64,000 bases of DNA from a virus, in IMG/VR virus record IMGVR_UViG_3300020473_002200, positions 96,001 to 160,000 of that record; one strand, 5' to 3'. Both the position numbers and the translations under genes were made by a program. Shown here piece by piece: positions 9,546 through 60,569 of this stretch (position 1 is the first letter of the stretch; the number at the start of each line of letters is the position of its first letter). Below the pieces are notes generated by a model that was given only the letters and a program-made list of their open reading frames with translations, did no database searches and was not told where the DNA came from.

Positions 9546-9782
9546 ATGAACACTAAGCTTATTAGAGAATTTATACGACTTTTTTTAGAGAGATCAAGCG
9601 ATGTACTCGGTGAACCTGACCTCTCAAACCAAGAGGAAAGAGAAAAAGAGAAAAAAGATTCTGAGAAAGATGAAATGTCTGTTGCTGCTGGTATGCCTGG
9701 TGTTTCCACACCGCTAGGTACTGGACCGACCTACCCTGCTAAAATTGTCAAAAAGAATAAGAAAAGACAAAAAAAGAAATAG
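9546..9782 (+). CDS. small protein with leader MNTKLIREFIRLFLE
   Basis: Leader matches the 49-60 kb array consensus; GATAATTAAT immediately upstream. Confidence 0.65.
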   Translation: MNTKLIREFIRLFLERSSDVLGEPDLSNQEEREKEKKDSEKDEMSVAAGMPGVSTPLGTGPTYPAKIVKKNKKRQKKK

Positions 9783-9866: not shown

Positions 9867-10664
9867 ATGGCAGTAGATTTTGAAGCAATTAGAAGAAAGT
9901 TAAACCAACTTAGCGGTCAAGGGAATAAGCGCAATGCAATGTGGCGACCGCAAGAGGGAGAAGAAGTTACAGTACGTATTCTGTCATTTCCCAATAATGA
10001 TGACGGTCTACCTTTTACTGAGCGTTGGTTTTATTACAACATCGGTAATAACCCAGGCCTACTAGCGCCATATCAGTTTAGTAAGCCAGATCCGATTCAG
10101 GATCTTATTAATAAGCTTCGTGATGAAGGCACAAAGGAGTCTTATGAGCTAGCCAAGAAGCTTTATCCGAAGCCTAGATATTACGCGCCTGTAGTTGTTA
10201 GAGGTGAAGAAGATAAGGGGATTAGGGTTTGGTCTTTTGGTAAGATGGTATATCAATCTTTGTTGAATATTATGTTAGACGAAGACTATGGCGATATTAC
10301 TGATGTCGCTGAAGGACGAGATGTTAAGGTGATTTGTACAAAGGCGCCAGGTCGAATGTGGGCAACTACAGAAGTTCGTCCTCGGGGCAAACAAAGCAAG
10401 CTGTCAGACAATAATAAGCAAATTGAGAACTGGGTTTCTAGTATTCCGAACTTGGATGATATGTACTCACTTAAGTCCAGCGAGGAACTTGAGAAAATTA
10501 TAAATGATTGGCTAAATGGCGATCTAGAAGACTCAAGCACTGAAAGTACAGGTACCACAAGAAATACCAACTTTCAGAGTAATAATACCAGCGCAAATAC
10601 AGAGACACAAAAGAAATTTAACAGTCTGGATGACGCGTTCGCAGACTTAGAGAGCGATTTTTAA
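9867..10664 (+). CDS. T4 gp32-like single-stranded DNA-binding protein
   Basis: WRPQEG, VRILSFP, YYAPVVVRGEEDKG, DYGDITD...GRD; acidic tail DDAFADLESDF. Confidence 0.8.
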   Translation: MAVDFEAIRRKLNQLSGQGNKRNAMWRPQEGEEVTVRILSFPNNDDGLPFTERWFYYNIGNNPGLLAPYQFSKPDPIQDLINKLRDEGTKESYELAKKLYPKPRYYAPVVVRGEEDKGIRVWSFGKMVYQSLLNIMLDEDYGDITDVAEGRDVKVICTKAPGRMWATTEVRPRGKQSKLSDNNKQIENWVSSIPNLDDMYSLKSSEELEKIINDWLNGDLEDSSTESTGTTRNTNFQSNNTSANTETQKKFNSLDDAFADLESDF

Positions 10665-10677
10665 AAGAGGATTTTAA

Positions 10678-11871
10678 ATGGCAAAAAGAAAGTCTAAGAA
10701 TCAAACTGACGACTTTACTTCTGACCTAATTTCTTCATTAAATAAAGAGCATGGATCTAAGGTTGCATATAACCTGCATACCGATTCATCTCCGACACAT
10801 GTGAAGAGGTGGGTAAGTACAGGTTCAAAACAGCTTGATTATATTATTTCAAATAAAAGAGAAGGTGGATTGCCTGAGGGTCGGATCATAGAAATTTTTG
10901 GTCCGCCCTCAATTGGCAAATCGCACATCGCGATACAGATAGCTAGATCAACCCAGCAAATGGGCGGTATAGTTGTTTATATAGACACAGAGAACGCAAC
11001 TAGCGTTGAAAATTTAGGTCTACTAGGTGTTGACATAACAAAGCGTTTCGTGTACGTTGATACGCATTGCACAGAAGAGGTCTTGTCCATTGCCGAAGCT
11101 ACAATTATGAAGGCAAAAGCAATGGACAAAGATGTACCCATTACTATTATATGGGATTCAGTTGCTGCTTCATCTCCAAAAGCGGAGTTGGTTGGTGATT
11201 ATGATCAAAACTCTATCGGACTACAGGCTCGAGCTATTTCGAAAGGTATGAGAAAAATTACAGGTGTAATAGGTCAAACTAATACATTGCTGATTTGTTT
11301 AAATCAAATTAGGACTAATATCGGGGTTATGTATGGTGATCCGACAACTACGCCGGGTGGAAAAGCAATTCCATTTCATTCTTCTGTAAGAATCAAGCTT
11401 GGTGCAGGTCAGCGGATAGAGAATAAGAAAAAAGAAGTAATTGGCATCAACGTTTCTGCGAAAACGATAAAAAATAAGGTTGCACCCCCATTCAGGACTG
11501 TAAATTTTGAGATTCACTTTGGGAAAGGTATTGTTGAGCACGAGCAGGTGTTCGATGAACTTAGGAAAGCGGGTCCAGCGATAGTTGGAGATAACAAGAT
11601 AGAGTTAGCAGGTACCGGCGCGTGGAAATCTTTGCTTGTACATAATCAGAAAACCGGTGAAGTATTGGCTGAGAAGAAATTTTATAAATCTGATTTTGGG
11701 GAGCTGTGGAGTAATCCAGATCACAAAGGTTATATAGACGACTTGCTTGAAGCAACAATGGTCAGAAAAATGTCAGACCCAAAGTCTGTCGATATTGATC
11801 CAGAGTCTTATGAGGAGATTAGATCAATATCGCTAGAGGCTGGTGACGACTTTATGGAATTGGATACGTGA
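10678..11871 (+). CDS. recA: RecA/UvsX recombinase
   Basis: Walker A GPPSIGKS, IWDSVAA, LNQIRTNIGVMYGDPTTTPGGKAIPF, KNKVAPPF. Confidence 0.93.
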   Translation: MAKRKSKNQTDDFTSDLISSLNKEHGSKVAYNLHTDSSPTHVKRWVSTGSKQLDYIISNKREGGLPEGRIIEIFGPPSIGKSHIAIQIARSTQQMGGIVVYIDTENATSVENLGLLGVDITKRFVYVDTHCTEEVLSIAEATIMKAKAMDKDVPITIIWDSVAASSPKAELVGDYDQNSIGLQARAISKGMRKITGVIGQTNTLLICLNQIRTNIGVMYGDPTTTPGGKAIPFHSSVRIKLGAGQRIENKKKEVIGINVSAKTIKNKVAPPFRTVNFEIHFGKGIVEHEQVFDELRKAGPAIVGDNKIELAGTGAWKSLLVHNQKTGEVLAEKKFYKSDFGELWSNPDHKGYIDDLLEATMVRKMSDPKSVDIDPESYEEIRSISLEAGDDFMELDT

Positions 11872-23200: not shown

Positions 23201-23856
23201 AGATATTGGCCAATAGACCATATTCAGACATTGATGATCTTTTATGGAATGAAGATGGTAAATGGAAGCACTCTAAGTTTAATAAAAGAGCGATGCAAGC
23301 GCTAATCGCGATTAAGGCGTTTGGGTCTATGAAGTGCGTTGGTAAAGATTCAATATTCGAAAGTTATAAGCATATGAATGAAGTTGTAATTGCCAACAAT
23401 ACAGAGGTTAAAAAGTGGACCAAGAAAGATCCAACACGAGGACAAGATGCGTTTAAGCGTATTTTGCTTGAGACTTCTGGGGAGGGTGAGTGGTCTAGAC
23501 ATGAGCAGGTACAAAATAGCGTGGCTCACCTAGGATCTTTTAACGTATCTACGCTAATATCACCAGAAGTGATTCAAAGACTGGACGATAAAGACATTAA
23601 TGTGATTGACGACTACAATGGTGTTGATTTACATTGGTTTCTCGTAATGGATGTGAAAGAAAAGTTGACTAAAAATAAAAAGCCATATCTGCTACTAACT
23701 GTTGCAGGAACCTCGGGCCAGCAATTTAGGATTTTTTGTTGGAGTTGGGATGGAAAGACGGAAATGCCAAAGTATAGTTTGTGTGTTGGTGAGTTGAATA
23801 AAAATGATTATGGATTTCAAACTTCTATGAGAAAAATCAAGGTACTTAAAGTATAA
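20254..23856 (+). CDS. dnaE: DNA polymerase III alpha subunit (family C)
   Basis: PHP motifs LHAHDGFS, TNHG, TTDSHY; GRGSAAGS, PDIDTD, GRHAGG, KFDLLGL, FQEQIM, YGFNKSHA; C-terminal OB fold. Confidence 0.95.
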   Translation: MIKSPKRFTSLHAHDGFSTFDGLGYPQEHIDFVLENGMDSYCLTNHGHMNSFGHAYLHAEKIRKRNPGFKFIPGCEMYVHPDLQVWELDRQIRQAAKKGDKDAIAVLKAQREAIATPLTAVVDGDDEIVDITTEEAGLTVENEEETKSAKFYDPIKRRHHLVVLPKTSEGLQRLFHLVSRGYREGFYRFPRVDYKMLQEAAEGGHLMVSTACIGGPIAYEVFRHAQQVEFDDLSHKLLDDSSFYEKVMTGVGNAYQGLVDSVGINDVMLELQFNKLPAQHLVNRAIIEFANSQGITDKLVVTTDSHYARPEHWRERELYKKLGWLNYREFDPSKLPQSKEDLKCELYPKNAEQVWDTYLETTEGMDFYNHEAIRDAIERPHDIVHQEIGEIHPDRSMKLPSYVVPKGMTDDKALLEACKKGLIARGLADDPKYVERIKHELKIIKDKNFSRYFLTMEAIIEIAKKAMLVGPGRGSAAGSLVAYVLRLTDVDPFEYDLMFGRFLNPSREGAPDIDTDVGDRDLLINMMKDKWGDENIVPISNYNTFKLKSLVKDISRFYGIPFNEVNKALAPVEDDVKKAVFKQGTDKNLFVLLYEDAIAHSKTFREFIEKYPEVADPIQVLFKQNKALGRHAGGCIVAEDIAERMPLIKARGELQTPWAEGMNYKHLETFGWIKFDLLGLETLRIIQRTIELILQRKEGIENPTFDQVYEWFNSNMDPKVLDMDDQHVYEHVYAKGRWAGIFQLAGRGAQNLFKKAKPKSIVDIATLTSIYRPGPLTAKVDKLYINAKNNPDDIDYGHPLIKEVLEETYGLIVFQEQIMKLCSVVAGFPEEETDTVRRNIMKRKASEAAESLAKARAIKEQFVAGSVKNGVDRQLADDLYEKILFFAGYGFNKSHAVCYAIDSYYCAWLLTYFEEEWLCAYLESMSGNDKKRAKAFSEVKALGYTIVPIDINYATKSWTILEGKKFMPSFLSCKGVGEAAIDEILANRPYSDIDDLLWNEDGKWKHSKFNKRAMQALIAIKAFGSMKCVGKDSIFESYKHMNEVVIANNTEVKKWTKKDPTRGQDAFKRILLETSGEGEWSRHEQVQNSVAHLGSFNVSTLISPEVIQRLDDKDINVIDDYNGVDLHWFLVMDVKEKLTKNKKPYLLLTVAGTSGQQFRIFCWSWDGKTEMPKYSLCVGELNKNDYGFQTSMRKIKVLKV

Positions 23857-42687: not shown

Positions 42688-44262
42688 ATGCAAAAAAGAA
42701 TTTTAAAATATTCAGAAGAACTACGAGGTTCTTTGCTGGAAGGTGTATCAAAGTTGTCAAGCGCAGTTAAGATCACCATGGGCCCACGGGGTCAAAATGT
42801 CTTAATAGAAATTAATGAAGCACCTCCAATTTTAACAAAGGACGGTGTCACTGTCGCTGAGGCGATTAATCTTGTTGATAGATTCGAGAATTTAGGCGCC
42901 CAAGTTGTGAAAGAAGCTGCTCGTCAAACAGCTGAAATCGCTGGCGATGGCACAACTACATCGACAGTTTTGGCTCAAGCAATTTTTGAGCAAGGAAGCA
43001 AGTATCTAAATACGGGTGGTAATATTAGAGATTTAAGAGAGTCGTTAATACAAGCAAAAGATTTAGCGATCTCTGCTCTAGGAGAAATGGCTATTGATAT
43101 TAGAAATGAAAAAGACCTAAAGAATGTTGCTACAATTTCTGCTAATGGCGAAAAATCGTTAGGAGAAATTATTTCCGATGCAGTTAGTAAGGTTGGATCA
43201 CATGGATATGTGACAGTTGAAAACTCCAAGGGGTACAATACGGAGCTTGTTTTAGTTGATGGATACCAAATAGATAGAGGTTACATTTCACCTTATTTTG
43301 TGACAAATCAATCGAAGCAAACAGTGGAGTTTAAAAATCCTCTTGTATTATTAACAAATCAAACTATAACTAGTTTGAAAAGTATTATGTCAATTTTGGA
43401 AGAGACTGTTCGTGAAAATCGACCTTTAATTATAATGGCTAATGATGTAACAGGTGAGGCTTTACAAGGTTTGATTTTGAATAAGTCAAAGGGCAATTTA
43501 CAATGTTGCGTTTTGAGACCTCCGGAGTTCGGTATCGCTCGTGAGCAGGCGCTTGAAGACTTAGCTGCTGTCTTGGGAGCTGAATTAATTCACGATAATC
43601 CAGATGAGTGGTCTAATATGCCTATCTTTTCAATGCTGGGTAGTTGTAAAACGTTTAAAGCATACAAAGAAAAGAGTGTGTTTGTTGATTGCAATTCTGA
43701 TCATGATGTCATAAACCAAAGAATTGCAGCAATAGAGTCTCGTTCTGGAGAACCAAACGTATCTATAGATGAGCGCAGCGTACTAGACCGCCGTCGAAAG
43801 CGAATGACAAGTGGGGTTGCGATTATCTATGTTGGGGGTTCTACGGAAAGTGAAGTCAACGAGCGTAGAGATCGTGTTGATGATGCCGTAAACGCTACTC
43901 GCGTTGCGTTAGAAGATGGAATTATCCCGGGCGGCGGTGCAGCGTTGTTTAGGGTTTCCGAACAGCTTTGCAGTAAGACTGAACCAGGGTATCAGATTTT
44001 ATCTCATGCATTAAAGATGCCTGTATACCAAATATCAAAAAACGCAGGTGATATACCCGAGGTAATTTTAGAAAAGTTAAAAAGCACTAAGGGGAACTCG
44101 GGATATAACGCTATTAGCGGTAAGATTACAAATGTAATGAAAGAAGGAATAATTGATCCAGTGAAAGTAGCGGTTTCAGCATTAGAAAATGCCACTAGCG
44201 CCGCATTAAATCTATTATCGGTTGGTTGCGCAGCCGTCGTGAAAGAACAGGAGAAGCGTTAA
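42688..44262 (+). CDS. groEL: chaperonin GroEL homolog
   Basis: TMGPRGQNV, TKDGVTVA, AGDGTTT, DRGYISPYF, GIIPGGG, GIIDPVKV; no GGM tail. Confidence 0.93.
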   Translation: MQKRILKYSEELRGSLLEGVSKLSSAVKITMGPRGQNVLIEINEAPPILTKDGVTVAEAINLVDRFENLGAQVVKEAARQTAEIAGDGTTTSTVLAQAIFEQGSKYLNTGGNIRDLRESLIQAKDLAISALGEMAIDIRNEKDLKNVATISANGEKSLGEIISDAVSKVGSHGYVTVENSKGYNTELVLVDGYQIDRGYISPYFVTNQSKQTVEFKNPLVLLTNQTITSLKSIMSILEETVRENRPLIIMANDVTGEALQGLILNKSKGNLQCCVLRPPEFGIAREQALEDLAAVLGAELIHDNPDEWSNMPIFSMLGSCKTFKAYKEKSVFVDCNSDHDVINQRIAAIESRSGEPNVSIDERSVLDRRRKRMTSGVAIIYVGGSTESEVNERRDRVDDAVNATRVALEDGIIPGGGAALFRVSEQLCSKTEPGYQILSHALKMPVYQISKNAGDIPEVILEKLKSTKGNSGYNAISGKITNVMKEGIIDPVKVAVSALENATSAALNLLSVGCAAVVKEQEKR

Positions 44263-44609: not shown

Positions 44610-45377
44610 ATGTCAGAAGCATTACAAACATACTTCACTAGAGTTGGCAAATATCCACTTCTTACCCGAGAACAAGAAATTGATTTAGCTAAAAAGATTG
44701 AGGCTGGTGACGCAAGGGCGAAAAATCAGATGATTCAATCAAATTTAAGACTTGCTATATCAATTGCAAAAAAGTACCATGGCAAGGGTTGCTCTCTAGA
44801 AGATTTGATTCAAGAATCTAATATGGGATTAATCAAAGCTGTTGATCGTTTTGATTGGCGTAAAGGCTTTAAGTTTAGTACATATGCATATTGGTGGATT
44901 AAACAATCTGTTAGGACACATGTAGCAAGTCAGGCTTCTGATATTAAGCTGCCTGCCCACACCAGAAATCTTCTTTGGAAAATGAATGAAATGATCAAGG
45001 AATATGAAGAAGAGTTTGGTCAACGTCCTTCATACGACGAAGTATCGGAAGCTTTGGGTATCCCGACTAGTACGCTAATGTCTATGATCAAGTGCTCGAC
45101 ACAGCTGTCACTTGATGCAAATATTAGGGATAGATCTGGTGGCGCTGGTAGAAAGATTGCAGAAGTTGTTCCAGATAATGAAGCGACGTCTGTTGATGAT
45201 CTATTAGACTCTGTTAAGATAAAGGGTGTAATGAGAAGCGCATTAAAAAGTCTTACAAGCAGAGAGGAAAATATTATACGTTTAAGATTTGGGATTGGTG
45301 AGCCAGCCGAACAGTCAAATGAACAGTTTTCTTTAAGTAAAGCTGAAGTAAAAGAAATTAGGAGGATTGCAAAATGA
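44610..45377 (+). CDS. sigma70-family sigma factor, regions 1.2 to 4.1 (4.2 HTH missing)
   Basis: YPLLTREQE, MIQSNLRLAISIAKKY, DLIQE.N.GLIKAVDRFD, KFSTYAYWWIKQSV, REENIIRLRFGI, then diverges and stops. Confidence 0.9.
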   Translation: MSEALQTYFTRVGKYPLLTREQEIDLAKKIEAGDARAKNQMIQSNLRLAISIAKKYHGKGCSLEDLIQESNMGLIKAVDRFDWRKGFKFSTYAYWWIKQSVRTHVASQASDIKLPAHTRNLLWKMNEMIKEYEEEFGQRPSYDEVSEALGIPTSTLMSMIKCSTQLSLDANIRDRSGGAGRKIAEVVPDNEATSVDDLLDSVKIKGVMRSALKSLTSREENIIRLRFGIGEPAEQSNEQFSLSKAEVKEIRRIAK

Positions 45378-48878: not shown

Positions 48879-49517
48879 ATGAGAAGCAAATTAAGAACAT
48901 TAATTAGAGAAATGCTTGAAGATGAGCTTAGTCCAGTCGCTCCGCAACGAACAATACCCCAGAATGAATGGACTTTATTGCAGTCTGGTGATCCAAGAAG
49001 AGAGCAAGTAAAACAAAACTTATTCGATTTAGTGCAGCAAACATACGCTCCTATCGGTGGCCACTTTAAAATTACTAGTCCTGATAGTCTAGATAGATAC
49101 ACCTATTGGGTCGTTAAAGATATTGATGATGATGCAGATGTTGATGTTGCGATTATGGGAAAACCTGATGTCGGCGGAGTAAAAATGGGGGCCGCAGCAA
49201 ATGATGGCTCACCACAGGCCTCAGGGGAATATAAGAGCAAATCTGCAGAGCTTAGAGCTGGTGGATCTATTGCCGGTATTGGGAATTGGTGGGGTGAGGT
49301 TAGCGGAAAGCCTGCGTACGCCATGTTAAAAAGAGGCGCAAAGCCAGTTGAGGATGAAGCGAAGGTTGCACAATTACTCGCAGGTGATGACTATATTTTT
49401 CATGGAGAACACCCGGACCCAAATGCTCCGCCATTGTTTAAGAGCGCAAAGGGTTGGTATACTAAAAAGTTCGGAGCTAAAAGCTCAACAAAGATCATAT
49501 TGGGGAATCCAGCGTGA
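48879..49517 (+). CDS. leader-tagged cargo protein (MRSKLRTLIREMLE), unknown domain
   Basis: First member of the array. Confidence 0.7.
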   Translation: MRSKLRTLIREMLEDELSPVAPQRTIPQNEWTLLQSGDPRREQVKQNLFDLVQQTYAPIGGHFKITSPDSLDRYTYWVVKDIDDDADVDVAIMGKPDVGGVKMGAAANDGSPQASGEYKSKSAELRAGGSIAGIGNWWGEVSGKPAYAMLKRGAKPVEDEAKVAQLLAGDDYIFHGEHPDPNAPPLFKSAKGWYTKKFGAKSSTKIILGNPA

Positions 49518-49705
49518 ACTTATTACGAGAATATATAAGCGCGCTATTAGAGTTTAGTATAAAGGCTAATAGGAAGAACACTCACCAAGATGGAACATGT
49601 CAAAGTCGTGGTTATATGAGCGGGAAAGATGTGACATGGACCGGCGACGATACAAATGACGAGCTGTATGGCTGGTATAAAAAAATGGGAATGATGGAGG
49701 ACTAA
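49514..49705 (+). CDS. leader-tagged small protein (MNLLREYISALLE)
   Basis: GTGA coupling. Confidence 0.65.
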   Translation: MNLLREYISALLEFSIKANRKNTHQDGTCQSRGYMSGKDVTWTGDDTNDELYGWYKKMGMMED

Positions 49706-49944
49706 TGAAAGTCACAAAACGACAATTAAGAAAAATCATTTCAGAAGCGCTAGCACTGGATCTAGAAGTCGGCGATGTAATTCTTACTGGTCGTTTTAAA
49801 AACAAGAGAACAGTCGTAAAGAGTATTGGGACTGATGACATGGGCCAACCTACTATAAACGGGATGAAAGCGCTCAGCTTTAGAATAGAGAAGCTGATGC
49901 CAAAATCTAAATGGAGTAAAAAGTCTCTGGAGGAAGAAGAGTGA
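49705..49944 (+). CDS. leader-tagged small beta-rich protein (MKVTKRQLRKIISE)
   Basis: Cargo LEVGDVILTGRFKNKRTVVKSIGTD. Confidence 0.7.
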   Translation: MKVTKRQLRKIISEALALDLEVGDVILTGRFKNKRTVVKSIGTDDMGQPTINGMKALSFRIEKLMPKSKWSKKSLEEEE

Positions 49945-50909
49945 AAATCACAAAACGACAACTGCGAAGAATTATCAGGGAATCTACCTACGAAGATTGG
50001 CGAGATGATATTAACATCGCTGATGATTGGTATGGTGATCTTAGCAACACGCAAGATGAGTATAGTAAGCTACGATCACCTGCAGGTAACAGGATAGGAA
50101 TAAGCTGGTACCTTGGCGTTCCTATGTGGTCTAGCTATGCCAAGTCGACGTTCATGAAAAGGTATGGAAATCGCGCTGGCGCTACAGTTAGGATTGTTAG
50201 AGACCGGAAGGACCCTCCACTGGTAGGGTATATTACAGTTAACGGTATAAAGTCTCTTGACCTCAGCGACCTTAGCAACGTCGATAAACGCCCTCGAGAA
50301 CTAGCTGACTTACTGAAAAAAACTATGGACGAAAGTCTTAAAGACCCCGAGCGAATGGCTCAGTACAAAGATTACCTGAATTCAAATCGAGGGCCCGGGA
50401 TGGTAATGGCCTCTGCAAGATCGTCATGCTCTAAGATGAGAATCACAGAGGCGCAACTAAGAAGAATTGTTAAAGAATCTTTGAAGACAGAAATATTCGG
50501 CTTTGGTAAAAAGAAGAAGAAAGAAAGCAAAATAGAAAAACCCGTTTATCTTATAAGAGTAGATAGTTTTCCAAAAAGCTGGGCCGCCCATTCCTACAGA
50601 ATAAGTAAAGACCAAGATAATGAAAATAGAAAATCTGAAAAGCAACTAGGAAAAGAGATTGGCGCAGAAGTAGACATGGCTCTTTTGAATAATCGATATA
50701 TTCTAGCTGTGCAAAAGCCTTATGAAACTAGCGCTGAAGCAAAAAGCGTAGTTAGTAAAATAAACACCGTAGTTAAGAAAATGCTTGAAGATGAATCAAT
50801 CCACTTTGGCAAAGATAAGCAAACTCCAGAAGCAATAAAGTCTGGTAAAATAGCGTCTATTCTTGTGTGGGATTCGGAAAAAAGTCTTCCTTGGGAGAAG
50901 TTGCTATAA
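49941..50909 (+). CDS. two fused leader-tagged cassettes
   Basis: MKITKRQLRRIIRE at the start and an in-frame MRITEAQLRRIVKE at 50436. Confidence 0.7.
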   Translation: MKITKRQLRRIIRESTYEDWRDDINIADDWYGDLSNTQDEYSKLRSPAGNRIGISWYLGVPMWSSYAKSTFMKRYGNRAGATVRIVRDRKDPPLVGYITVNGIKSLDLSDLSNVDKRPRELADLLKKTMDESLKDPERMAQYKDYLNSNRGPGMVMASARSSCSKMRITEAQLRRIVKESLKTEIFGFGKKKKKESKIEKPVYLIRVDSFPKSWAAHSYRISKDQDNENRKSEKQLGKEIGAEVDMALLNNRYILAVQKPYETSAEAKSVVSKINTVVKKMLEDESIHFGKDKQTPEAIKSGKIASILVWDSEKSLPWEKLL

Positions 50910-51235
50910 TGAAAGTTACAAAGAAACAGTTGAGAAGAATAATCAGGGAAGTTTCTGCTTCACGCGCGATGTTAAATAAAGCACGTGAAGTTAACCGTGG
51001 TAAGGCAGCTGATTTATTTCAAAGGTTTGATGATCTAGGACACAGGCTAGCCCAGATGAGTAATTCTGATCCGGATTACGAAAATGTTAGTGATGATTAT
51101 GACATACTCGAAGATGAGCTTGAAGATCTTGGTTACGAAATTCCTTCGTCCTTTAATCCGTTTAGGGTCGATAGCGGCAAAATTCGAGATAAAGCCACTG
51201 GAGAAATTGTTCACACAAGGCAAAAAAGAAGATGA
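50909..51235 (+). CDS. leader-tagged protein (MKVTKKQLRRIIRE)
   Basis: TAATG coupling at 50907-50911 gives the true start. Confidence 0.7.
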   Translation: MKVTKKQLRRIIREVSASRAMLNKAREVNRGKAADLFQRFDDLGHRLAQMSNSDPDYENVSDDYDILEDELEDLGYEIPSSFNPFRVDSGKIRDKATGEIVHTRQKRR

Positions 51236-51402
51236 AGTTAGATGTCAAGACCTTAATAACGATAGTAACTTTTGCTGCCACGATGGGCGGCTTTTACTAT
51301 TCCACTCAGCTAAGGTTAGATCATCTAGAAGAGAATGTCGCTAGTGTAGAAAAGCAAATCAAGCAACTTAAGAAGCAAAAGAGAAAAGTTAGGACGAAGT
51401 AA
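51232..51402 (+). CDS. 56 aa TM plus coiled-coil protein (not in the ORF track)
   Basis: MKLDVKTLITIVTFAATMGGFYYSTQLRLDHLEENVASVEKQIKQLKKQKRKVRTK; coupled on both sides. Confidence 0.55.
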   Translation: MKLDVKTLITIVTFAATMGGFYYSTQLRLDHLEENVASVEKQIKQLKKQKRKVRTK

Positions 51403-51729
51403 GTGTACGAATACCGAGCATTTGTCAGAAAAGTATATGATGGTGATACAGTTACTGTAGATATTGATCTGGGATTCGACGTCATTCTTAAGGCTCAGAA
51501 AATACGTCTACTTCGTATAAACGCTCCTGAAGTCAGAGGTGAACAAAGAGAATTTGGCTTAAAGTCTAGAGACGCCCTTCGTCAAAAAATTGGTAATAAA
51601 TGGATTAGGCTAAAAACAGAAAAAGATAAGAAGGGTAAGTTCGGTCGCTGGCTTGGGGAGATTTGGTTCAATGATGAGTGCGTAAATGATTGGCTTCTAA
51701 GAGAGGGATTCGCAGAGGTATATAAATGA
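51403..51729 (+). CDS. staphylococcal nuclease (SNase/thermonuclease) homolog
   Basis: VYDGDTV, IRLLRINAPE, GKFGRWLG, WLLREGFA. Confidence 0.88.
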   Translation: MYEYRAFVRKVYDGDTVTVDIDLGFDVILKAQKIRLLRINAPEVRGEQREFGLKSRDALRQKIGNKWIRLKTEKDKKGKFGRWLGEIWFNDECVNDWLLREGFAEVYK

Positions 51730-53006
51730 AAATCGCAAAGTATCAGCTAAGAAAATTTATCCGCGAAAGTTTTTCTTCTGAAGATTTTAAGGATGTTTAT
51801 AATACTGCAAGGATGGCTCATGTAGGTCAAACCAGACGCGATGGTTCTGAGTATTTTTCACACCCATCAGAAGTTAGAAATATCGCCAGAAGTTTTTATC
51901 CTAGAGATAAACTCGCGCAATTAGCGGCTCTTCTTCACGATTCCTTAGAAGACGCCCCAGGATCTACAGTCGAGTCTGCTGAGGAGATGGAAGATTTTAT
52001 CAGGGGTTCTATACAGGATAATTCTCAAGCTGATGAAGTGATTAGGGTCGTACGCGCTTTGACTCATGAAAAGGGTGGAGATTATTTGTCATACGTAGTC
52101 GGTTTAATGGGTGATGTGCCTACTCTAAGGGTAAAGTTATCAGACATGGTTCATAATCTTACCGATAATCCGTCTCCAAAACAAAAAGCAAAATATAAAT
52201 CAGCTTTAGACGCAATTTCAATAAAGACTTCAGGCCAGCCTCCTTCTGGAATTTCTAGCAAACATTGGGACACTCTTCTTTCTTTGGCTGAGAATAAAAA
52301 TCATTCTTTAAAAGAATATATTGGTTTATTAATTGAGCTGGATGAAGTGGCACTTCTTAGTGAGGGTGAGGGTATATCTTGTCCTATTCGCGGGGCTTGG
52401 TACGGCGGCATGCCTGCAGGCGGCGGGTTTGGTCCCCATAAAGAGTACACTGTCGCAGCCCAAAGATACGGAGAGGCTGCTCATTGTATTCTTGGTTCTC
52501 TTGGTAGAAGGGTCGGTGCACCCGGAAAAACAGAGTGGCATTCAATGATGGTCGGCGAACGCGAGCACCTTCTAGAAGAAATCGGCATCATGATGAAAGT
52601 GATAGAAGAGTATTCTAGAGACTTGTACATAGACCAAATTAACGATATCACTCGCTATAGAGAAGATCGAAGGGAAGAGATTGCTGAGTGGAACCAGGGT
52701 GCAATTGATGACATTAGAAAGACGGCACCAAAACTTGAAGAAAAAGCTAGAAATAATATGGGCCGCTTAAAAGCAATAAAAGATGCTGAGCCAGAGTTTC
52801 CAGACTCTGTTTTTAAAGTTGCGCTTTATACATACCAAAGCTTAGGTATGCTAGGCAAGTTTATGCTTGAGAGTATTGAAGACTGGGACGATGAAAAAGG
52901 GACCGGTTTAGATCCTGCAAAAAACGCTTTTAAAAACCGGCGACTGCGTGGAAGAACTTTTATGTTAGCCGCGGCTATCGATGAAATGATTGAGGACTTA
53001 TCATGA
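51726..53006 (+). CDS. leader-tagged HD-domain (p)ppGpp hydrolase-like (Mesh1/SpoT-HD) domain fused to a second cassette
   Basis: AHVGQTRRDGSEYFSHP, AALLHDSLED, VKLSDMVHN; internal LKEYIGLLIE at 52308. Confidence 0.8.
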   Translation: MKIAKYQLRKFIRESFSSEDFKDVYNTARMAHVGQTRRDGSEYFSHPSEVRNIARSFYPRDKLAQLAALLHDSLEDAPGSTVESAEEMEDFIRGSIQDNSQADEVIRVVRALTHEKGGDYLSYVVGLMGDVPTLRVKLSDMVHNLTDNPSPKQKAKYKSALDAISIKTSGQPPSGISSKHWDTLLSLAENKNHSLKEYIGLLIELDEVALLSEGEGISCPIRGAWYGGMPAGGGFGPHKEYTVAAQRYGEAAHCILGSLGRRVGAPGKTEWHSMMVGEREHLLEEIGIMMKVIEEYSRDLYIDQINDITRYREDRREEIAEWNQGAIDDIRKTAPKLEEKARNNMGRLKAIKDAEPEFPDSVFKVALYTYQSLGMLGKFMLESIEDWDDEKGTGLDPAKNAFKNRRLRGRTFMLAAAIDEMIEDLS

Positions 53007-53959
53007 GCTTACTACGAAGATACATAAGGGAAGCGTTAATAAGCGAAAGCGCTAACTTAAAAAAGCTTAACGAAATTATAGAAGAGTGTTGCATTAGATA
53101 CTGCTTAAAAGAAGGCATTATATCTATACCGTCTAATCCAAAAAACTATATTGTTGTAGAGGGCCGATGGCTTATAAGAAAGTCTTTACTTGCCGAAAGA
53201 AAAAGTGATACTTTGGCGACAATTGATCAAGCAAGAAAGTCCTCGAATTATTGGACTCCTGGGAAATGTGGCGATTTTGAGCACACTTATGGGAGCATAA
53301 GTACAAATCTTAAGCATGGCCGCGGTATGGATCATATTGAAAAATATTTAGATGATGATGAAGGTGAAGCATATTGGAGATGGTATGGTTCATGTGCAAA
53401 AGGGGTGGATAAATTCCAGTGGTTACAAGCAGATATGATAGCCGGTGCGGGTGGTGCGATTGTTGATCTTACAAAAGCTGCTGGGAAGGGGTTGTATAGA
53501 ATACTTAAGCCGGCCGTGAAGAAAGCCGGTCGTTTAGCATTAAACGTAGCAGACGAAGCTGGAAAACTTGCTTTAAAGTCGACCGGCAAAGCTTTGGGGA
53601 TCGCGTGGGATGTTATAAAAGACGTAGTAACAGATTCCGCAGACGCTACCTGGGACTGGATGAAGACTAGGGGGACAAAAAAAGACCTCACGACATTGGC
53701 TTATGAAAATCCGGATAAATTTATTGAATTTCATAATACAACAAAAGGCAGATTACAGGGCGCTGGTTTGCCGGTCGATTCAGCTGGAGAGACAGCCAGC
53801 ACAATGGGTTTGCTACAAACAGATATAGGGAAACAAACAGCAGAAACTGCTGCTAGCTCATTAGGTATTACTGCTTCTCAATTGGAAGATTTATTAATAG
53901 TTCATATGCACACATTTAATGAGCTTACTTTAGCTAAAAAGAGGACGGCTTTTACATGA
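53003..53959 (+). CDS. leader-tagged helical protein (MSLLRRYIREALISE)
   Basis: Ala/Gly/Lys amphipathic helices in the C-terminal half. Confidence 0.7.
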   Translation: MSLLRRYIREALISESANLKKLNEIIEECCIRYCLKEGIISIPSNPKNYIVVEGRWLIRKSLLAERKSDTLATIDQARKSSNYWTPGKCGDFEHTYGSISTNLKHGRGMDHIEKYLDDDEGEAYWRWYGSCAKGVDKFQWLQADMIAGAGGAIVDLTKAAGKGLYRILKPAVKKAGRLALNVADEAGKLALKSTGKALGIAWDVIKDVVTDSADATWDWMKTRGTKKDLTTLAYENPDKFIEFHNTTKGRLQGAGLPVDSAGETASTMGLLQTDIGKQTAETAASSLGITASQLEDLLIVHMHTFNELTLAKKRTAFT

Positions 53960-55080
53960 AACTACTACGTGAATACATAAGAGAGTTATTACTAATAGAA
54001 TCCGATGAAGTTGATGCCGACGGGTACATCAAAGGTGAGGATGGGAAATGGTATAATCCCCAAGGTCGAAAGCAATGGGAGTTGCCATGGCAATTTAAGA
54101 ATAGCAGGAAGACAGGCAATATCAGGTACTACCCCGACGAGGATGGGACTTGGACTATTAAGCCACCATCGCCTATTCCCTCCAAGTATAACGGGGTTGA
54201 GGGTTACGTCTTGCATGCTGCGTACGAAAAGAATGGGGATGTCAAGTACGGAAGCAAAGTCGCCGGTGTGGATTTGCATGCAGGACAGTCCGCGGAATGG
54301 TGGGAATATCCGAAAGACGGCTCGATCGTAGTAGTACATCCAGAGCTCTATCAACGTGATGACGGTTACCCCTGGTTCACAAATCCCGAGTGGGTGGCGT
54401 ACTATAAAAAGGCGCTGGAAAAGATAATGACTTTGGGTGGAAACGCCTTCTCTTTCGCGAAATTCCAAGGGTTTATAGTTCAGGCCCAAGATCCTAATAG
54501 CGAATGGGCAAAGAGGCTTAGCGACTTAGGGGTAGCTGAAGGTCATACGCTATTAGAGCGTTATGGAAGAGCACTCCTCGATCCTGGTGATGAAGATTGG
54601 GTCGAGCAGGCAAAAGCAGCACGAGAAGGTGCAAAGTTACAGGGGCTATCATTTGAACTGTTTAAATGGCTTGGTGCCCATCTTGACTGGATGAAGACCT
54701 ATTATAAGAAGAGTATAAGTGATTTAGTTCTCCTCGAGCTTCTTGATGTGTACGAAGAATCCCAATCCGCTCCTAAGCCGGATTTAGAGGACGATGCCAC
54801 CGCCACTAAGGAAGGGAAAGAGCTAGCGCTCAAATTAGCTGACGCCATGTACATGCCTGTATTCGCTAAAGGCTTTGCAAAAATATGGCGTAAATTAAAT
54901 ATAAGTCCAAGGGAAGAGATTAGGGCGTTCTCGAAGTACGCAAGGGGAAATCGCACTGATGGTTATACACAGGCACATGATCTCTTAAGGAAGCATGATG
55001 AAACGACATATCCTAGTGGTATCATTTATGAGATACCAGACGAAGCCTATGCAGCGCTAGCAAGAGAATATTACAGCTAA
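53956..55080 (+). CDS. leader-tagged protein of unknown function
   Basis: MKLLREYIRELLLIE. Confidence 0.7.
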   Translation: MKLLREYIRELLLIESDEVDADGYIKGEDGKWYNPQGRKQWELPWQFKNSRKTGNIRYYPDEDGTWTIKPPSPIPSKYNGVEGYVLHAAYEKNGDVKYGSKVAGVDLHAGQSAEWWEYPKDGSIVVVHPELYQRDDGYPWFTNPEWVAYYKKALEKIMTLGGNAFSFAKFQGFIVQAQDPNSEWAKRLSDLGVAEGHTLLERYGRALLDPGDEDWVEQAKAAREGAKLQGLSFELFKWLGAHLDWMKTYYKKSISDLVLLELLDVYEESQSAPKPDLEDDATATKEGKELALKLADAMYMPVFAKGFAKIWRKLNISPREEIRAFSKYARGNRTDGYTQAHDLLRKHDETTYPSGIIYEIPDEAYAALAREYYS

Positions 55081-55813
55081 TGAAACTACTACGCGAGTAC
55101 ATAAGGGAGTTGTTGAGAGAGAAGGGCGAGCTTGGTAAAAAAGTGTTCGCTCAATCTGCACCTGAAGGTTCTCGCCACGCCGGAGATGAGCCGGACACTA
55201 AGTTGGAGACCAGTTTGAAACGTGCGCTAGCGAATCACTTGTTTGCAGGCGGCGCTTCATCAAAAGAGTTGGGTGAGCTTGGTCCCTACATATTGCGGTT
55301 CATGGATGATCCGGACTACAACGATGTCTTTATCAGATATTCGGGTGGAGAAGTTTGCAGAGGGACTCGGCTGAGTTTAGAAGAAGCCAGAAGTCTTATA
55401 CCTGGTTTCGACAACATGCCACTTGAGAGTGCAACAGGTCGTACACATGCATTCCAGAAGTTTGAAGCTTGGACACAGAAGGTCTCTGTTCCTCCATTTG
55501 AGTATTCCCCTAAGTCTGGCAACCAAGTGTCCTCGTGGTCAACGAACAGCGAAAGAGTCTGTACTCGGTTCGCGAAAAAGAACGCCGGTATTTGGGATGG
55601 AAATGTTGGCGTAATTCTATATACAGACTCTAGCCAAAATGATTTCTTAGATTTTAGCGAGCTGTACAAGTTTGGAGCGCTAAGTAAACACAGCCATGAA
55701 AAAGAAGTAGCAGCATTTGGTCCTGTGTTGGTAACGGCAGTTAAGGTTTACAAAGAGGTTACCGAAGAACAATGGGCTGAAGTGCAAACTGAAGTAGAGT
55801 TAGGAAGACCAAA

Positions 55814-55817
<4 letters not shown>
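55080..55817 (+). CDS. leader-tagged putative ADP-ribosyltransferase (R-S-E type)
   Basis: VCRG, VSSWST, HEKEV. Confidence 0.6.
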
Positions 55818-56864
<1,047 letters not shown>

Positions 56865-56865
56865 A

Positions 56866-57456
56866 ATGAACCTACTACGCGAGTACATAAGGCAACTGCT
56901 AACTGAATCCACTATTGATCCAAAGATCATGAGAATGATCGACAAGGCAGAGAAATATGGTCTTTTCGTGGACATCACATCTAACAGCGTAATCATCTAC
57001 GACGGCCACAACACCGATAAACCGCGCGCTAAAATTCACTTTGAAAGAGATACATCTTTCGGCCCCTGCAGAGGTGGAGCTTACGTTACTTATGCAAAAG
57101 CAGAAGGTGGCTTTGGCCCATTAGCTTATGACGTTGCCATTGAGGCTACAGGCGGTCTGATGTCAGATCGAACTGAAGTTTCCCACGAAGCGATGGTCGT
57201 TTGGGATTACTACGCGAATAACAGGCCCGATGTCAAAGTAGACCAGCTGGACATAATGAAGGACTACGGAGAAGAACAGTTAACTCCTGATGACAAGTCC
57301 GACGATTGCGATCAGGTACCGGCGTACGACAGGTACAAGTCAGACTGGCACAAGTCAGGCCTGTCAAAAAAGATAAGCAAGAGGGGTACGCCAGTCATAG
57401 ATGAGCTTAGAGCGCGTTTCATGCTTTACGACGATAGGGAAGACCACACACTATGA
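56866..57456 (+). CDS. leader-tagged GNAT acetyltransferase-like protein
   Basis: GGFGPLAYDVAIE...LMSDR..VS..A..VWDYY (motif A/B-like). Confidence 0.55.
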   Translation: MNLLREYIRQLLTESTIDPKIMRMIDKAEKYGLFVDITSNSVIIYDGHNTDKPRAKIHFERDTSFGPCRGGAYVTYAKAEGGFGPLAYDVAIEATGGLMSDRTEVSHEAMVVWDYYANNRPDVKVDQLDIMKDYGEEQLTPDDKSDDCDQVPAYDRYKSDWHKSGLSKKISKRGTPVIDELRARFMLYDDREDHTL

Positions 57457-58436
57457 AACTACTACGTGAATACATAAGAGGGTTACTTCAAGAAAGTGTT
57501 AGCCCAGAAAAGTTGAAAGATCTTGCTTCGAAGATAATGGTTTCCCCGAGCAATGATTTTTCTGGTCAAGTTGGAGAAAAGATAGCTCTGATGTGGCATC
57601 CGAATGGAATGAACCTAAATAGCATCAAGAATAATAATTTCTTCCCATTTGCAGATATAGCTGCTGGGCCCCTGCCTTCTGCTACTGGCGAGCGGACTTA
57701 TAGGCAAAGACAAAACGCTAGCCATCCGTTTCCACCTCTCTATTCTGTAAAAGCAAGTAGCAGCATTACTTTTAGAAAAGGTGTATGGCAAGGAGCTGAT
57801 CCTTTTGCTAATTCAAGAATCAAAGGTAGCACTATATACGAATTAGTCAATGAACGCGGCCAAAATGGTTTAAGAGACGAAATTGATGCAATTTATGGAC
57901 CTGCCGAGGCTGGTAAAGTAGTCAAGCTAAGATTGGGAGCTATCGGGATCTTTCCTAGAGCGATGGCTAAGGACGAATCTGAAGAGCCGAGAGATGCTTT
58001 TGCTGACCCTAGAGCGATAGGTGTTACAGTTAAAAAATACGGTCCGAAGGAATTTGAGTTTGTAGCAAGCGCGGCCGGGCTTTATGAAAACCCAGTGACA
58101 CGCGTTGGTAAGCTTGGTAGCGAATCCCTAGTAAGTGGCGCGTTTGGCGCCCCTGATAACTTAACCAGCGAAGATATGCAGCAACCAGCCTCTGTAATTC
58201 CTGCACAAACTAGCGGCAGAAAAGATCAAAAATCAGATAGCGCTAGAGTAGCCGACCAAGAAACTTTAGACAGTTTGAGAAGTAGTATTGCTGCTATTGA
58301 TGACTCAAGGATTAGTCTTTCTAATCAAGATTTAAAAACTTTAGCAGATATTAGCACTCTAGAACCTGATGAATTTGAAGAAATTAGAGAGTTAGTTAGA
58401 GGAATATTGTCTAGAAGATCTGGAGAAGAAGCGTGA
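57453..58436 (+). CDS. leader-tagged putative restriction-endonuclease-fold protein
   Basis: GEKIA, NFFPFADI, YSVKAS. Confidence 0.4.
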   Translation: MKLLREYIRGLLQESVSPEKLKDLASKIMVSPSNDFSGQVGEKIALMWHPNGMNLNSIKNNNFFPFADIAAGPLPSATGERTYRQRQNASHPFPPLYSVKASSSITFRKGVWQGADPFANSRIKGSTIYELVNERGQNGLRDEIDAIYGPAEAGKVVKLRLGAIGIFPRAMAKDESEEPRDAFADPRAIGVTVKKYGPKEFEFVASAAGLYENPVTRVGKLGSESLVSGAFGAPDNLTSEDMQQPASVIPAQTSGRKDQKSDSARVADQETLDSLRSSIAAIDDSRISLSNQDLKTLADISTLEPDEFEEIRELVRGILSRRSGEEA

Positions 58437-58969
58437 ATCTCCTACGCGAGTACATAAAAGAATTGCTATCTGAGAATAAGCTGTCCAGCGCTGAGATACA
58501 ACACCTGCAGGCCATCAAACGCGGTTCAAGACATGAACGACGACGACCTCAGGCAATCGTCATAGGCAGGCTAATAGATAAGGGTTTTGTAACCGGCGAT
58601 ATGAAAGGTAATCAATTTCTCCCAGGTTACGGCGCTTCATCTAGTGCTAGCAACCTTGCCATCACTCCAGAGGGTGAAGCAGCATTAAGAGCAACTTTAG
58701 GCAAGGCAGACTCAGACATGGCCAAGTACCAAAAGATAATAATGCAAGCGGTCATCGACGCTGCAGGCAGTTCGGTACCAGAACACGAGTTGCCAGGTTA
58801 CAACCCAAAGACATTCAAGCTAAGAGGAAAGTACCGCAAAGCGTTTGACGAGTTGCGTGGGTTCGGAAGTGACATCGACGCCTTAACGATACAGAGAGAT
58901 TCACAAGGCAACAGAATGGTTAGCCCAGGACCTGATTTTGAGCGTATTAAAAGCGAGTTAGGATTATGA
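58433..58969 (+). CDS. leader-tagged winged-helix-like protein
   Basis: RLIDKGFV...AITPEGEAAL. Confidence 0.45.
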   Translation: MNLLREYIKELLSENKLSSAEIQHLQAIKRGSRHERRRPQAIVIGRLIDKGFVTGDMKGNQFLPGYGASSSASNLAITPEGEAALRATLGKADSDMAKYQKIIMQAVIDAAGSSVPEHELPGYNPKTFKLRGKYRKAFDELRGFGSDIDALTIQRDSQGNRMVSPGPDFERIKSELGL

Positions 58970-59763
58970 AACTACTTCGCGAGTACATAAGAGAGCTACT
59001 GAAGGAAGATCCAATGGGTTTTGTTCAGGATCTCGCCGCGGCATCTGATCAATTCCGTGACGAAGACTTTAACGAGTTTCACGGCGGCAACCCAGGTAAG
59101 TCAGGAGGCAGGGCGATCAAGCGTGCATTTGCTGCCAACGCTGATTATAACTTTCTCAACTCCTTAGATACTGTTCATTGGATTAAAGACGCTTACAATC
59201 TCAAACCGCTCATAGGCAGATCTCGAGATGAATTATCAGCCACTATGACTCTGCCTAGCGAGCCTTTTAAAGCGCCAAGAGGTTTTAATGCTGACCTAGA
59301 GTTAGGCTTGTGGATAAAGGGTCGTATAACTCTGGCAGCCAATAGTCAAGACGACCTGTACACTGGTACTTACTTCGATTACATGAGAGGACGTGATCCC
59401 GAACAGTTTGAAAAAGATAAGCACCGCAAAGCATCATCAGGTGTAAACAAGAGACCCACTGTTTCAAAAGATTATAGCAGGTACGCAAAGCTAAAAAGAG
59501 GCAATGAGTACCATGAAAAGCTGGCCAGAAAGATTCCGTATGTTCTGGATCAGTCGACTTGGAATCCAGCTTCTATAAACGAGGCGCTAGTAGACAACTG
59601 GCGAGCAAAGGGACTGATTGTCTCGGACCAAAGTATTATCGATGCAATCAAGGACAACCCAGAAGGCGACGGTGTAGGCTGGCTAAAAGAATTTTATGAG
59701 ATGGCTGAGGTATTCGACGTTCCAATGTATGACACAGACAAAAACGTAATCTGGAGCCCGTAA
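58966..59763 (+). CDS. leader-tagged protein, possible ART-like fold
   Basis: TVHW, ELSAT, IKGRITLA..D, NEALV pattern. Confidence 0.5.
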   Translation: MKLLREYIRELLKEDPMGFVQDLAAASDQFRDEDFNEFHGGNPGKSGGRAIKRAFAANADYNFLNSLDTVHWIKDAYNLKPLIGRSRDELSATMTLPSEPFKAPRGFNADLELGLWIKGRITLAANSQDDLYTGTYFDYMRGRDPEQFEKDKHRKASSGVNKRPTVSKDYSRYAKLKRGNEYHEKLARKIPYVLDQSTWNPASINEALVDNWRAKGLIVSDQSIIDAIKDNPEGDGVGWLKEFYEMAEVFDVPMYDTDKNVIWSP

Positions 59764-60569
59764 TGAAACTACTACGCGAGTACATAAGAGAACTTTTAAA
59801 TGAGAAAGCCCGAGTGCGCGGCTATATTAAGCCGTCTTCTTCTTTTCACACACTTCTACAGTGGGAGCTTGTGGTAGAAGAATTACTACAGCTTCAGAAG
59901 CAGGGTGTTGATACTCGAGGAGGCATGAGCTTAAATCAGAGACTACTTCAGATAATCGATGAATATTTTGGTTTTCAATACAATATCGAGGTAGAGAGGT
60001 ACGATCTCCTAACTCAAAAGAACATTTTAGACTTCATCGAGGATTTTACCAATCACAGATTTTGGGGACTGGAGAGAGAGTTCGGTAGTTATTTTCCCGA
60101 TATAAGTAAGTTGAAGTTTGCTTACTTCTATTCTCGTGGAGATCTTGAGCCTCATGTACTGATGGATGAAGAATTTACAACTCAGATTTATGGTGGTCTA
60201 GACAATCAAAAACGTCTTAGTCACTATACAACTCAAGCGGGAGTAGAAAGAATTCAGGCAGCTATTGACTCAGGTCGACCTTTCGATATATCATGTTTCA
60301 CCGTTGCGGAACGCCCTTTCTTTAGACCTGAATCTAGCTTGGTCGTGGAGTTAATAGGTAATGTTCGTGGGGGTTTTAGGAGTGATATTAAATCTGTCGC
60401 AGTTGATACTGGGCGCAGAGCATGTAATATGTATAGACTAGAGTACCCTGGCAAAGATCAGGATAATATTTGTAGAGAGCTGGACTCTTGTGATAGCGAA
60501 GTTCGTACTTCTTTGTGGAATGAATATATAGCGACGCCTGAAAAGATATTAAGCGTTAAGAAGGTATAG
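59763..60569 (+). CDS. leader-tagged protein, possible ART-like fold
   Basis: LSHYT, DISCFT, LIGNVRGG..SD, WNEYI pattern, parallel to 58966. Confidence 0.5.
   Translation: MKLLREYIRELLNEKARVRGYIKPSSSFHTLLQWELVVEELLQLQKQGVDTRGGMSLNQRLLQIIDEYFGFQYNIEVERYDLLTQKNILDFIEDFTNHRFWGLEREFGSYFPDISKLKFAYFYSRGDLEPHVLMDEEFTTQIYGGLDNQKRLSHYTTQAGVERIQAAIDSGRPFDISCFTVAERPFFRPESSLVVELIGNVRGGFRSDIKSVAVDTGRRACNMYRLEYPGKDQDNICRELDSCDSEVRTSLWNEYIATPEKILSVKKV

Follow-up and report, generated by a model that had tools for sequence, protein, structure and literature searches.

Many genes in one part of the genome of an uncultured marine T4-like jumbo phage begin with one of two short leaders, and most of what follows the leader, here called the cargo, has no Pfam family and no similarity from gene to gene. 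This raises the question whether the leader is shared only as a peptide, or whether the DNA encoding it is also the place where whole genes are exchanged. We analysed a stretch of 64,000 nucleotides (nt), hereafter the window, which corresponds to bases 96001-160000 of a 188-kb IMG/VR record (IMGVR_UViG_3300020473_002200) with an estimated completeness of 67%. An A-type leader, M-[K/N]-L-L-R-E-Y-I-R-x-L-L-x-E, opens ten genes (starting at window positions 49514, 53003, 53956, 55080, 55814, 56866, 57453, 58433, 58966 and 59763), and a B-type leader, M-K-[I/V]-T-K-R-Q-L-R-R-I-I-R-E, opens four more (49705, 49941, 50909 and 51726). A 20-nt leader core has nine matches in the window at three or fewer mismatches, when none is expected by chance. 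A preliminary description of this DNA had proposed that the leader is also a recombination handle. The results presented below make it probable that this region holds an array of about 15 genes, co-directional and translationally coupled, in which the leader is a tag on each cargo and the leader DNA doubles as a crossover joint.

Crossovers map within leader DNA

Two related loci, L093 and L094, carry an identical protein of 245 amino acids (aa) that is 98% identical to the product of gene 55080. These loci share 99.6% identity over 2176 nt, and the final 1870 nt, which run through leader nucleotide 26, are free of mismatches. Past that nucleotide L094 continues with a whole extra 56866-like cassette followed by another cassette, Y, and L093 continues with Y directly; the Y copy of L093 is 83-86% identical to that of L094. 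On this alignment the L093 leader is a chimera, which places the crossover inside a 14-nt core (leader nucleotides 13-26) that is common to both parental leaders. Junctions of a related kind were found in G001 and L082. In each of these, a leader is preceded by 45 nt that correspond, as far as the ATG, to the 3' end of one window cassette, and the sequence behind that leader corresponds to a different window cassette. In addition, nucleotide identity between the 56866 cassette and its G001 copy is 89%, compared with 69-73% for backbone genes, and the cassette's GC content at third codon positions (GC3) is atypical in both genomes.

Junction adjacency was the same in all 106 comparisons made at a flank identity of at least 97%; below 90% flank identity it was the same in seven and different in eight. 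Cassettes like 55080 have at least five different downstream neighbours, one of which is a homologue of 58966 that lies directly behind the 55080-like cassette in L082 and L100. Cargo families were defined by strict clustering, as an earlier single-linkage clustering had chained unrelated proteins. In agreement with what had been proposed, whole cargos have been added, lost and reordered at leaders, the junctions in L093/L094, G001 and L082 lying inside them. The expected variation in cassette order was likewise found among related phages, but not among nine near-clonal assemblies, which displayed no rearrangement.

Array members and scars within the window

The array itself contains scars, namely an orphan leader at 56506-56527 and fusions at leaders. 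Its members, and the features lying between them, are the following.

48879..49517, + strand: 212-aa gene with a looser leader-like N-terminus, L-R-T-L-I-R-E-M-L-E-D-E
49514..49705, + strand: A-type cassette, 63 aa, GTGA overlap
49705..49944, + strand: B-type cassette, 79 aa, TAATG overlap
49941..50909, + strand: B-type cassette, 322 aa, with a second in-frame B-type leader from 50436
50909..51235, + strand: B-type cassette, 108 aa
51232..51729, + strand: two leaderless genes, one for a 56-aa membrane or coiled-coil protein, the other (51403-51729) for a homologue of staphylococcal nuclease (PF00565, E = 1.3e-11)
51726..53006, + strand: B-type leader, HD (SpoT/Mesh1-like) domain, relic A-type leader (~52305-52340) and a second module
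53003..53959, + strand: A-type cassette, 318 aa
53956..55080, + strand: A-type cassette, 374 aa, GC3 0.45
55080..55817, + strand: A-type cassette, 245 aa, ADP-ribosyltransferase-like cargo
55814..56509, + strand: A-type cassette, 231 aa, paralogous to the 55080 gene (32% identity)
56506..56527, + strand: orphan truncated A-type leader, 22 nt identical to 56866-56887, running directly on into the ferredoxin gene's ribosome-binding site, GGAGG
56538..56864, + strand: leaderless 4Fe-4S ferredoxin gene (PF00037) with leader copies on both sides
56866..57456, + strand: A-type cassette, 196 aa, GC3 0.52
57453..58436, + strand: A-type cassette, 327 aa, GC3 0.30
58433..58969, + strand: A-type cassette, 178 aa
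58966..59763, + strand: A-type cassette, 265 aa
59763..60569, + strand: A-type cassette, 268 aa, the last in the array

The preliminary description had placed the array at 49514-59792. Leader genes do lie across that interval, but its end is too early, since the last gene runs to 60569, and its start is arguably 48879. Homologues of the 48879 gene (77-78% aa identity) lie inside the arrays of L082 and L085, and the gene is probably the first array cassette.

Two genes carry a second leader in their interior. The 322-aa gene at 49941 looks like two cassettes fused. In the HD gene at 51726 the relic leader reads S-L-K-E-Y-I-G-L-L-I-E, and the C-terminal half of this gene exists as a separate leader-bearing gene in L040. 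Homologues of the HD part in L018 and L023 have other C-terminal modules behind a leader-like linker. From this organisation the 51726 gene is read as a fusion of two cassettes, and HD fusion proteins may be polyproteins that are cut at the linker. For the ferredoxin gene at 56538 no homologue was found in any related locus; near its 3' end, a different reading frame contains a degenerate leader-like stretch (56812-56828). The 22/22-nt identity of the orphan with the next leader was considered as unique proof of a duplication and was rejected, as two other leader pairs are equally identical.

Junctions, stop codons and base composition

Fourteen intact leader starts could be compared. Nine are ATGA/GTGA overlaps and four are TAATG overlaps; the remaining one has a 1-nt spacer. 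By a crude gene call, genes overlap by 4 or 1 nt at 12 of 16 array junctions, versus 28 of 148 elsewhere in the genome. That the array has no spacers, as had been stated, is correct nearly everywhere but not at 56510-56537, where the orphan leader lies, nor at the leaderless genes 51232, 51403 and 56538. Since the genes overlap in this way (A-T-G-A or T-A-A-T-G), leader-coding DNA is the sole sequence common to neighbouring cassettes. Promoter-like sites (37, with 35.3 expected) and terminator-like sites (15, with 13.5 expected) occur at chance level.

Across 119 junctions in related contigs the upstream open reading frame (ORF) ends at the TGA of A-T-G-A in 82, and at T-A-A-T-G or T-G-A-T-G in 22. 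The leader was therefore rightly described as supplying the upstream stop, the TGA accounting for 69% of these junctions. The upstream frame meets this TGA at leader nucleotides 2-4 and then a TAA at nucleotides 23-25 (for instance at window positions 55081-55104). The latter is made up of the conserved ATA and the A of AGR, and is lacking in B-type leaders. As primary upstream stop the TAA was rejected, being used in 0 of the 119 junctions; it may be a back-up stop, or incidental.

The array had also been described as richer in GC than its surroundings, and this was confirmed. Kilobase by kilobase, GC is 0.43-0.475 between 54 and 60 kb and about 0.38 in the flanks. The excess lies in GC3, which is above 0.43 in 5 of 12 array genes and in 3 of 90 others (Mann-Whitney p = 2e-5). 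Along the array GC3 forms a mosaic, with 0.52 at 56866 beside 0.30 at 57453.

Synonymous conservation in the leader

Where two A-type leaders have the same residue in codons 3-8, they also share the codon in a fraction of 0.60. Codon usage in the genome or the array would lead one to expect 0.33-0.37, and none of 5000 simulations reached 0.60; with the usage in codons 2-15 of other genes the expectation is 0.41, and 6 of 3000 simulations reached the observed value. The conserved codons are moreover the rarer ones (CGC, TAC, GAG and CTA), also under start-region usage. Thus the claim that synonymous positions are conserved beyond the need of the peptide stands for codons 3-8 of the A-type leader, where codon bias is insufficient to explain it. 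In A-type codons 9-12 there is no excess (0.25 observed versus 0.26-0.35 expected), and the B-type excess in the window is mostly due to A-rich start-region usage (146 of 3000 simulations).

The best-conserved stretch over 123 leader copies is formed by nucleotides 13-26, with a peak 19-26 nt downstream of the start codon. Across relatives Arg5 is CGN in 122 of 123 copies and Arg9 is AGR in 100 of 104, TAC and ATA dominate, and the third positions of codons 3-6 vary freely. Codon 2 always begins with A, even when it encodes Ser (AGY, 11/11) or Arg (AGR, 9/9). These counts rest partly on loci that were fetched by a DNA pattern fixing some of those bases; loci fetched by protein identity (L082, L085, L093 and L094) show the same leader codons.

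The leader resembles a capsid-targeting propeptide

The T4 genes ipII and ipIII (AF158101) start with M-K-T-Y-Q-E-F-I-A-E, of which the A-type leader shares M1, K2, E6, I8, E10 and an aromatic residue at position 7; T4 residues 4 and 7 are matched by conserved hydrophobic or aromatic positions of the leader. When the IPIII tag of T4 was mutated, targeting could be assigned to residues 4 and 7 and processing to residues 8 and 10 (PMC9026906). In T4, the gp21 protease cleaves after Glu, and every internal head protein docks to the core via such a tag (PMC5694885). Most window copies have I-R-E at residues 8-10, and L-x-E (A-type) or I-x-E (B-type) follows at 12-14; Glu-14 is present in 101 of the 123 copies across relatives. 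The leader hence appears to end in a prohead-protease site motif, with a predicted cut after Glu, and is most likely a T4-type capsid-targeting propeptide. Structure prediction modelled it as a detached amphipathic helix, with low model confidence.

The distribution of the motif and of the protease points in the same direction. The genome has a T4-type head module, with a portal (PF07230), a gp23-type capsid protein (PF07068) and a gp21-family prohead protease (PF03420, Peptidase_S77, E = 3.5e-25). PF03420 was found in all five array-carrying relatives tested, which together with the window genome makes six of six records. A scan of the 181 called proteins located the leader motif in the array genes and in a pair of small proteins whose genes come just after that of the protease; the only further match was one in a 1089-aa protein. 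The two small proteins take the position held by core proteins in T4, and their leader motif is kept in five relatives, all five of which have the protease. Taken together, the motifs suggest that the array encodes head-internal, injected proteins. The 14-residue tag, in its two types ending in [I/L]-x-E, would attach its cargo to the prohead core, and the gp21-family prohead protease would then remove the tag.

The small post-protease proteins at genome positions 69562-71304 (L008:6563-8305) have N-terminal leader-like motifs, and those encoded at 69988 and 70759 have C-terminal ones too. The C-terminal motif of the 70759 protein is closely like the N-terminus of window gene 48879. T4 Alt is reported to be processed at both ends, and the arrangement suggests that both ends of these small proteins can be processed in the same way.

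A candidate ADP-ribosyltransferase among the cargos

The cargo of gene 55080 gave a predicted model with a predicted local distance difference test (pLDDT) score of 86. Its top VIA structure matches are nearly all ADP-ribosyltransferases (ARTs), at modest Z values of 5-7.4; Foldseek matches were weak, and a PDB profile search with the 55080-family cargo found nothing. Across 19 homologues there is no variation at R94-G95 or E207-x-E209, and none or next to none at S151-S152-W153. For comparison, the catalytic pattern of the R-S-E clade of ARTs is Arg, Ser-x-Ser and Glu-x-Glu on an ART fold. On the basis of the model, the products of 55080 and 55814 are candidate injected ADP-ribosyltransferases. 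The packaged T4 protein Alt is an ADP-ribosyltransferase; here one cargo family is ART-like.

Candidate enzymes and a proposed route of exchange

Searches for integrases and resolvases (PF00589 and PF00239) found none in the record or in three relatives that are 92-100% complete, the controls being positive. The designation 'integrase-free' thus holds at the level of Pfam in these four sequences. The window does encode RecA, as had been noted (PF00154, E = 2.2e-64). The genes concerned, together with a neighbour, are:

9546..9782, + strand: solitary 78-aa gene beyond the array whose N-terminus is leader-like
9867-10664: gp32-like single-strand-binding protein (PF08804)
10678..11871, + strand: RecA-family recombinase

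We propose that short-homology crossovers in the leader would insert, delete, permute and fuse whole cassettes over evolutionary time, and that start codon, upstream stop and coupling would all survive such crossovers. The phage RecA and the gp32-like protein are candidate enzymes, which might act during recombination-dependent replication or co-infection; a RecA-family enzyme could be the joiner. We infer that the extra nucleotide conservation of the leader is a cause or a consequence of exchange.

Weighing of alternative explanations

Several results weigh against a role of leader DNA as crossover joint. Conservation of the leader nucleotides is position-specific (CGN for Arg5, TAC, ATA, AGR for Arg9) and not uniform, so that descent from one ancestral leader combined with local constraints could yield it. 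The exact identity of leader pairs is short (median 12 nt, maximum 28 nt), and 12-28 nt is marginal for RecA-type recombination. B-type leaders build similar arrays with little DNA identity (runs of 6-14 nt). Homogenisation is weak, leader identity being 0.738 within genomes versus 0.715 between genomes; orthologous leaders in other genomes differ from those of the window at 3.0 of 24 nt, and unrelated leaders within the window genome at 3.25 of 24. Strong concerted evolution of leaders within a genome was considered and dismissed as unsupported by both comparisons. The nine assemblies of 99.87-100% identity contain neither a structural variant nor a polymorphism, and each recombinant junction, including those of L093 and L094, comes from a single metagenome contig.

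Much of this would be expected if the leader were only a peptide signal derived from one ancestral copy, with any recombination, including illegitimate recombination, surviving only at the leader boundary. The likeness of the copies would then be kept by the A after the ATG, which forms the upstream TGA, by start-region codon preference and by the slow path from CGY to AGR. Besides the position-specific conservation, the free third positions of codons 3-6, orthologous leaders that diverge like their cargo, the small homogenisation, the B-type arrays with their mostly start-region codon excess, and the structural invariance of the near-clonal population all fit this explanation. It accounts less well for junctions that are free of scars to the nucleotide and have no spacer to use, as illegitimate events would seldom preserve both frame and overlap. 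Nor would it predict that L093 and L094 switch inside 14 exactly shared nucleotides instead of at the gene boundary, or that the conserved A-type codons are less used ones, even by start-region usage. We regard a pure peptide signal as possible but rather unlikely, and consider exchange at leaders to be supported, while we infer how and why it takes place. A stronger version, in which leader DNA is an actively maintained exchange site, kept by gene conversion and selection, and RecA routinely excises circles or swaps cassettes between co-infecting phages, appears unlikely.

The leader nucleotides might also form a signal at the RNA level, a translational operator or re-initiation element that co-ordinates the tagged genes, recombination being incidental. 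In line with this, each A-type gene has the conserved block across its start region, translation of the genes is coupled, and the region from -20 to +40 nt is slightly less structured than shuffled sequence in six of seven leaders (z 0.09 to 0.99), which fits open initiation sites. The strongest conservation, however, lies 19-26 nt past the start codon and not at it, the leader copies lack a common secondary structure, and the crossover junctions would be left unexplained; a RegA-family regulator was not found in the 188 kb, a record that is 67% complete and in which the control search was also empty. We therefore judge an RNA signal to be very unlikely. A conserved RNA hairpin in the leader was considered and discarded: no stable or shared fold was obtained and, by eye, the many C-A mismatches at the sole candidate stem oppose covariation. 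Least probable of all, and in our view hardly tenable, is that the shared N-terminus is another sorting signal, for secretion, membrane targeting or degradation. That capsid packaging is deduced from motifs, and that the predicted detached helix is of low confidence, leave some room for it. Unlike a hydrophobic signal peptide, the leader is charged and amphipathic; at positions of experimental importance it agrees with the T4 tag, a gp21-family protease accompanies it in all six records (the window genome and five relatives), and the motif recurs in head-core proteins beside the protease.

Comparison with known systems

The tag system resembles a member of the T4 capsid-targeting sequence (CTS)/internal protein (IP) system on each feature that could be compared here in sequence. 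As in T4 IPI, IPII, IPIII and Alt, a short N-terminal tag of the form M-K-x-x-x-E-aromatic-I-x-E, with a cut motif ending in Glu, stands on unrelated proteins, and the protease (gp21-family), the portal (gp20-type) and the capsid protein (gp23-type) have counterparts in the genome. T4 ipII and ipIII, too, are near-identical in their tag-coding DNA, over 32 nt. T4 differs in having three tagged genes at two loci, compared with about 15 in the array here. The tag described here has 14 residues and comes in two types, the genes overlap without intergenic regulatory DNA, and the cargos include an HD hydrolase and enzymes not known among the IPs of T-even phages.

Shuffling of accessory genes at short repeats is not new. 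It was described for T-even IP loci by Repoila et al. 1994 (as related in PMC2839356 and PMC12373910) and for the 'mobile regulatory cassettes', or PeSLs, of RB49 and phi1 by Arbiol et al. 2010 (PMC2839356; PMC4122927). In these systems too, short repeats flank accessory genes, and crossovers insert, delete or replace them without a dedicated recombinase. The PeSL repeat consists of an intergenic early promoter together with a stem-loop, and mini-circles have been shown for PeSLs (PMC2839356; PMC4122927). Here, by contrast, genes overlap by 1 or 4 nt, promoter- and terminator-like sites occur at chance level, and the repeat is about 26 nt that code for a capsid tag, with each exchange keeping start, stop and coupling. 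The array is not a member of the PeSL class, because the intergenic promoter and stem-loop are absent and the repeat is a translated tag. It extends the shuffling idea proposed earlier for T4 internal-protein genes; the advance is the coding-sequence version and its scale.

With integrons the array shares co-directional promoterless cassettes of unrelated function, a recurring short site, and content and order that vary between relatives. It differs in that IntI-type or other tyrosine or serine recombinases were not found here and in that the site is translated in each product. Leader regions folded as RNA have no shared or stable fold (z -0.58 to 0.99), unlike the attC-type palindrome. Of the earlier designation as an integrase-free integron analogue, the first half stands, as no integrase was found; the array is nonetheless not an integron, because it lacks both an integrase and a folded attachment site, and the analogy had already been drawn by the authors of the PeSL study themselves (PMC2839356).

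The giant phages phiKZ, 201phi2-1 and SPN3US (PMC5694885) also have many head-internal proteins that a gp21-related protease cuts after the Glu of a three-residue motif, with paralogues sharing N-terminal propeptides. Their motifs are A/S/G-x-E, their propeptides are longer and less uniform, and they have no single overlapping array with one leader. In the literature searched, we found no description of such tag arrays in marine T4-like phages.

Genome context

The window DNA recurs in at least nine other marine assemblies at 99.87-100% identity. One of them is a 278.6-kb contig in the NCBI metagenome-assembled genome GCA_002715545.1, which is probably the genome of a lytic jumbo phage that was binned with a bacterium. 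The record that contains the window (G000) is labelled 'provirus' in IMG/VR, and no integrase or resolvase was found in it. The nearest capsid proteins, from an uncultured huge phage, a Microcystis phage and Flavobacterium phages, are only 37-45% identical, and there is no close cultured phage. GenBank phages gave no match to the flank (megablast) or to the 196-aa cargo of 56866 (tblastn), and searches with the PAP2 and 717-aa flank proteins found no relatives in IMG/VR. When the upstream IMPDH-like gene was used as a synteny anchor, 21 loci were obtained. The flank is common to L052 and G001 only, and L052 stops short of the array.

On the evidence of their N-terminal sequences only, three further window genes code for a chaperonin resembling GroEL (42688-44262), a sigma-70-like factor (44610-45377) and a DnaE-like polymerase (20254-23856). 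Upstream of the head module, at genome positions 4333-50760, there are ORFs of very large size (2031, 1308, 5186 and 2752 aa). The sequence A-T-A-T-T-T-A-[A/G] recurs 10-30 nt before many structural gene starts (for example at genome positions 36537, 73066, 78070 and 89652, and at window position 61286) and is a candidate for a late promoter, with no copy noted within the array. We also considered a late promoter lying in leader DNA and rejected it, since the leader core does not resemble this sequence.

Implications

If the array is what we propose, one 42-nt element would combine capsid loading, a protease cut site, the start codon (and mostly also the upstream stop) and an exchange joint. 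A gene landing behind a leader would become an injectable, co-expressed effector in one step. This would explain how large marine phages maintain extensive, rapidly changing repertoires of injected proteins, among them ART-like enzymes and alarmone-type hydrolases. The T4 Ip proteins act against GmrSD (PMC12373910) and, by analogy, the injected array proteins probably act against host defences. A search for the tag offers a simple route to candidate injected effectors in metagenomes. Were leader DNA an actively maintained exchange site, the array would amount to an integron-like, recombinase-free system whose attachment site, once translated, becomes the capsid-loading signal of every captured gene.

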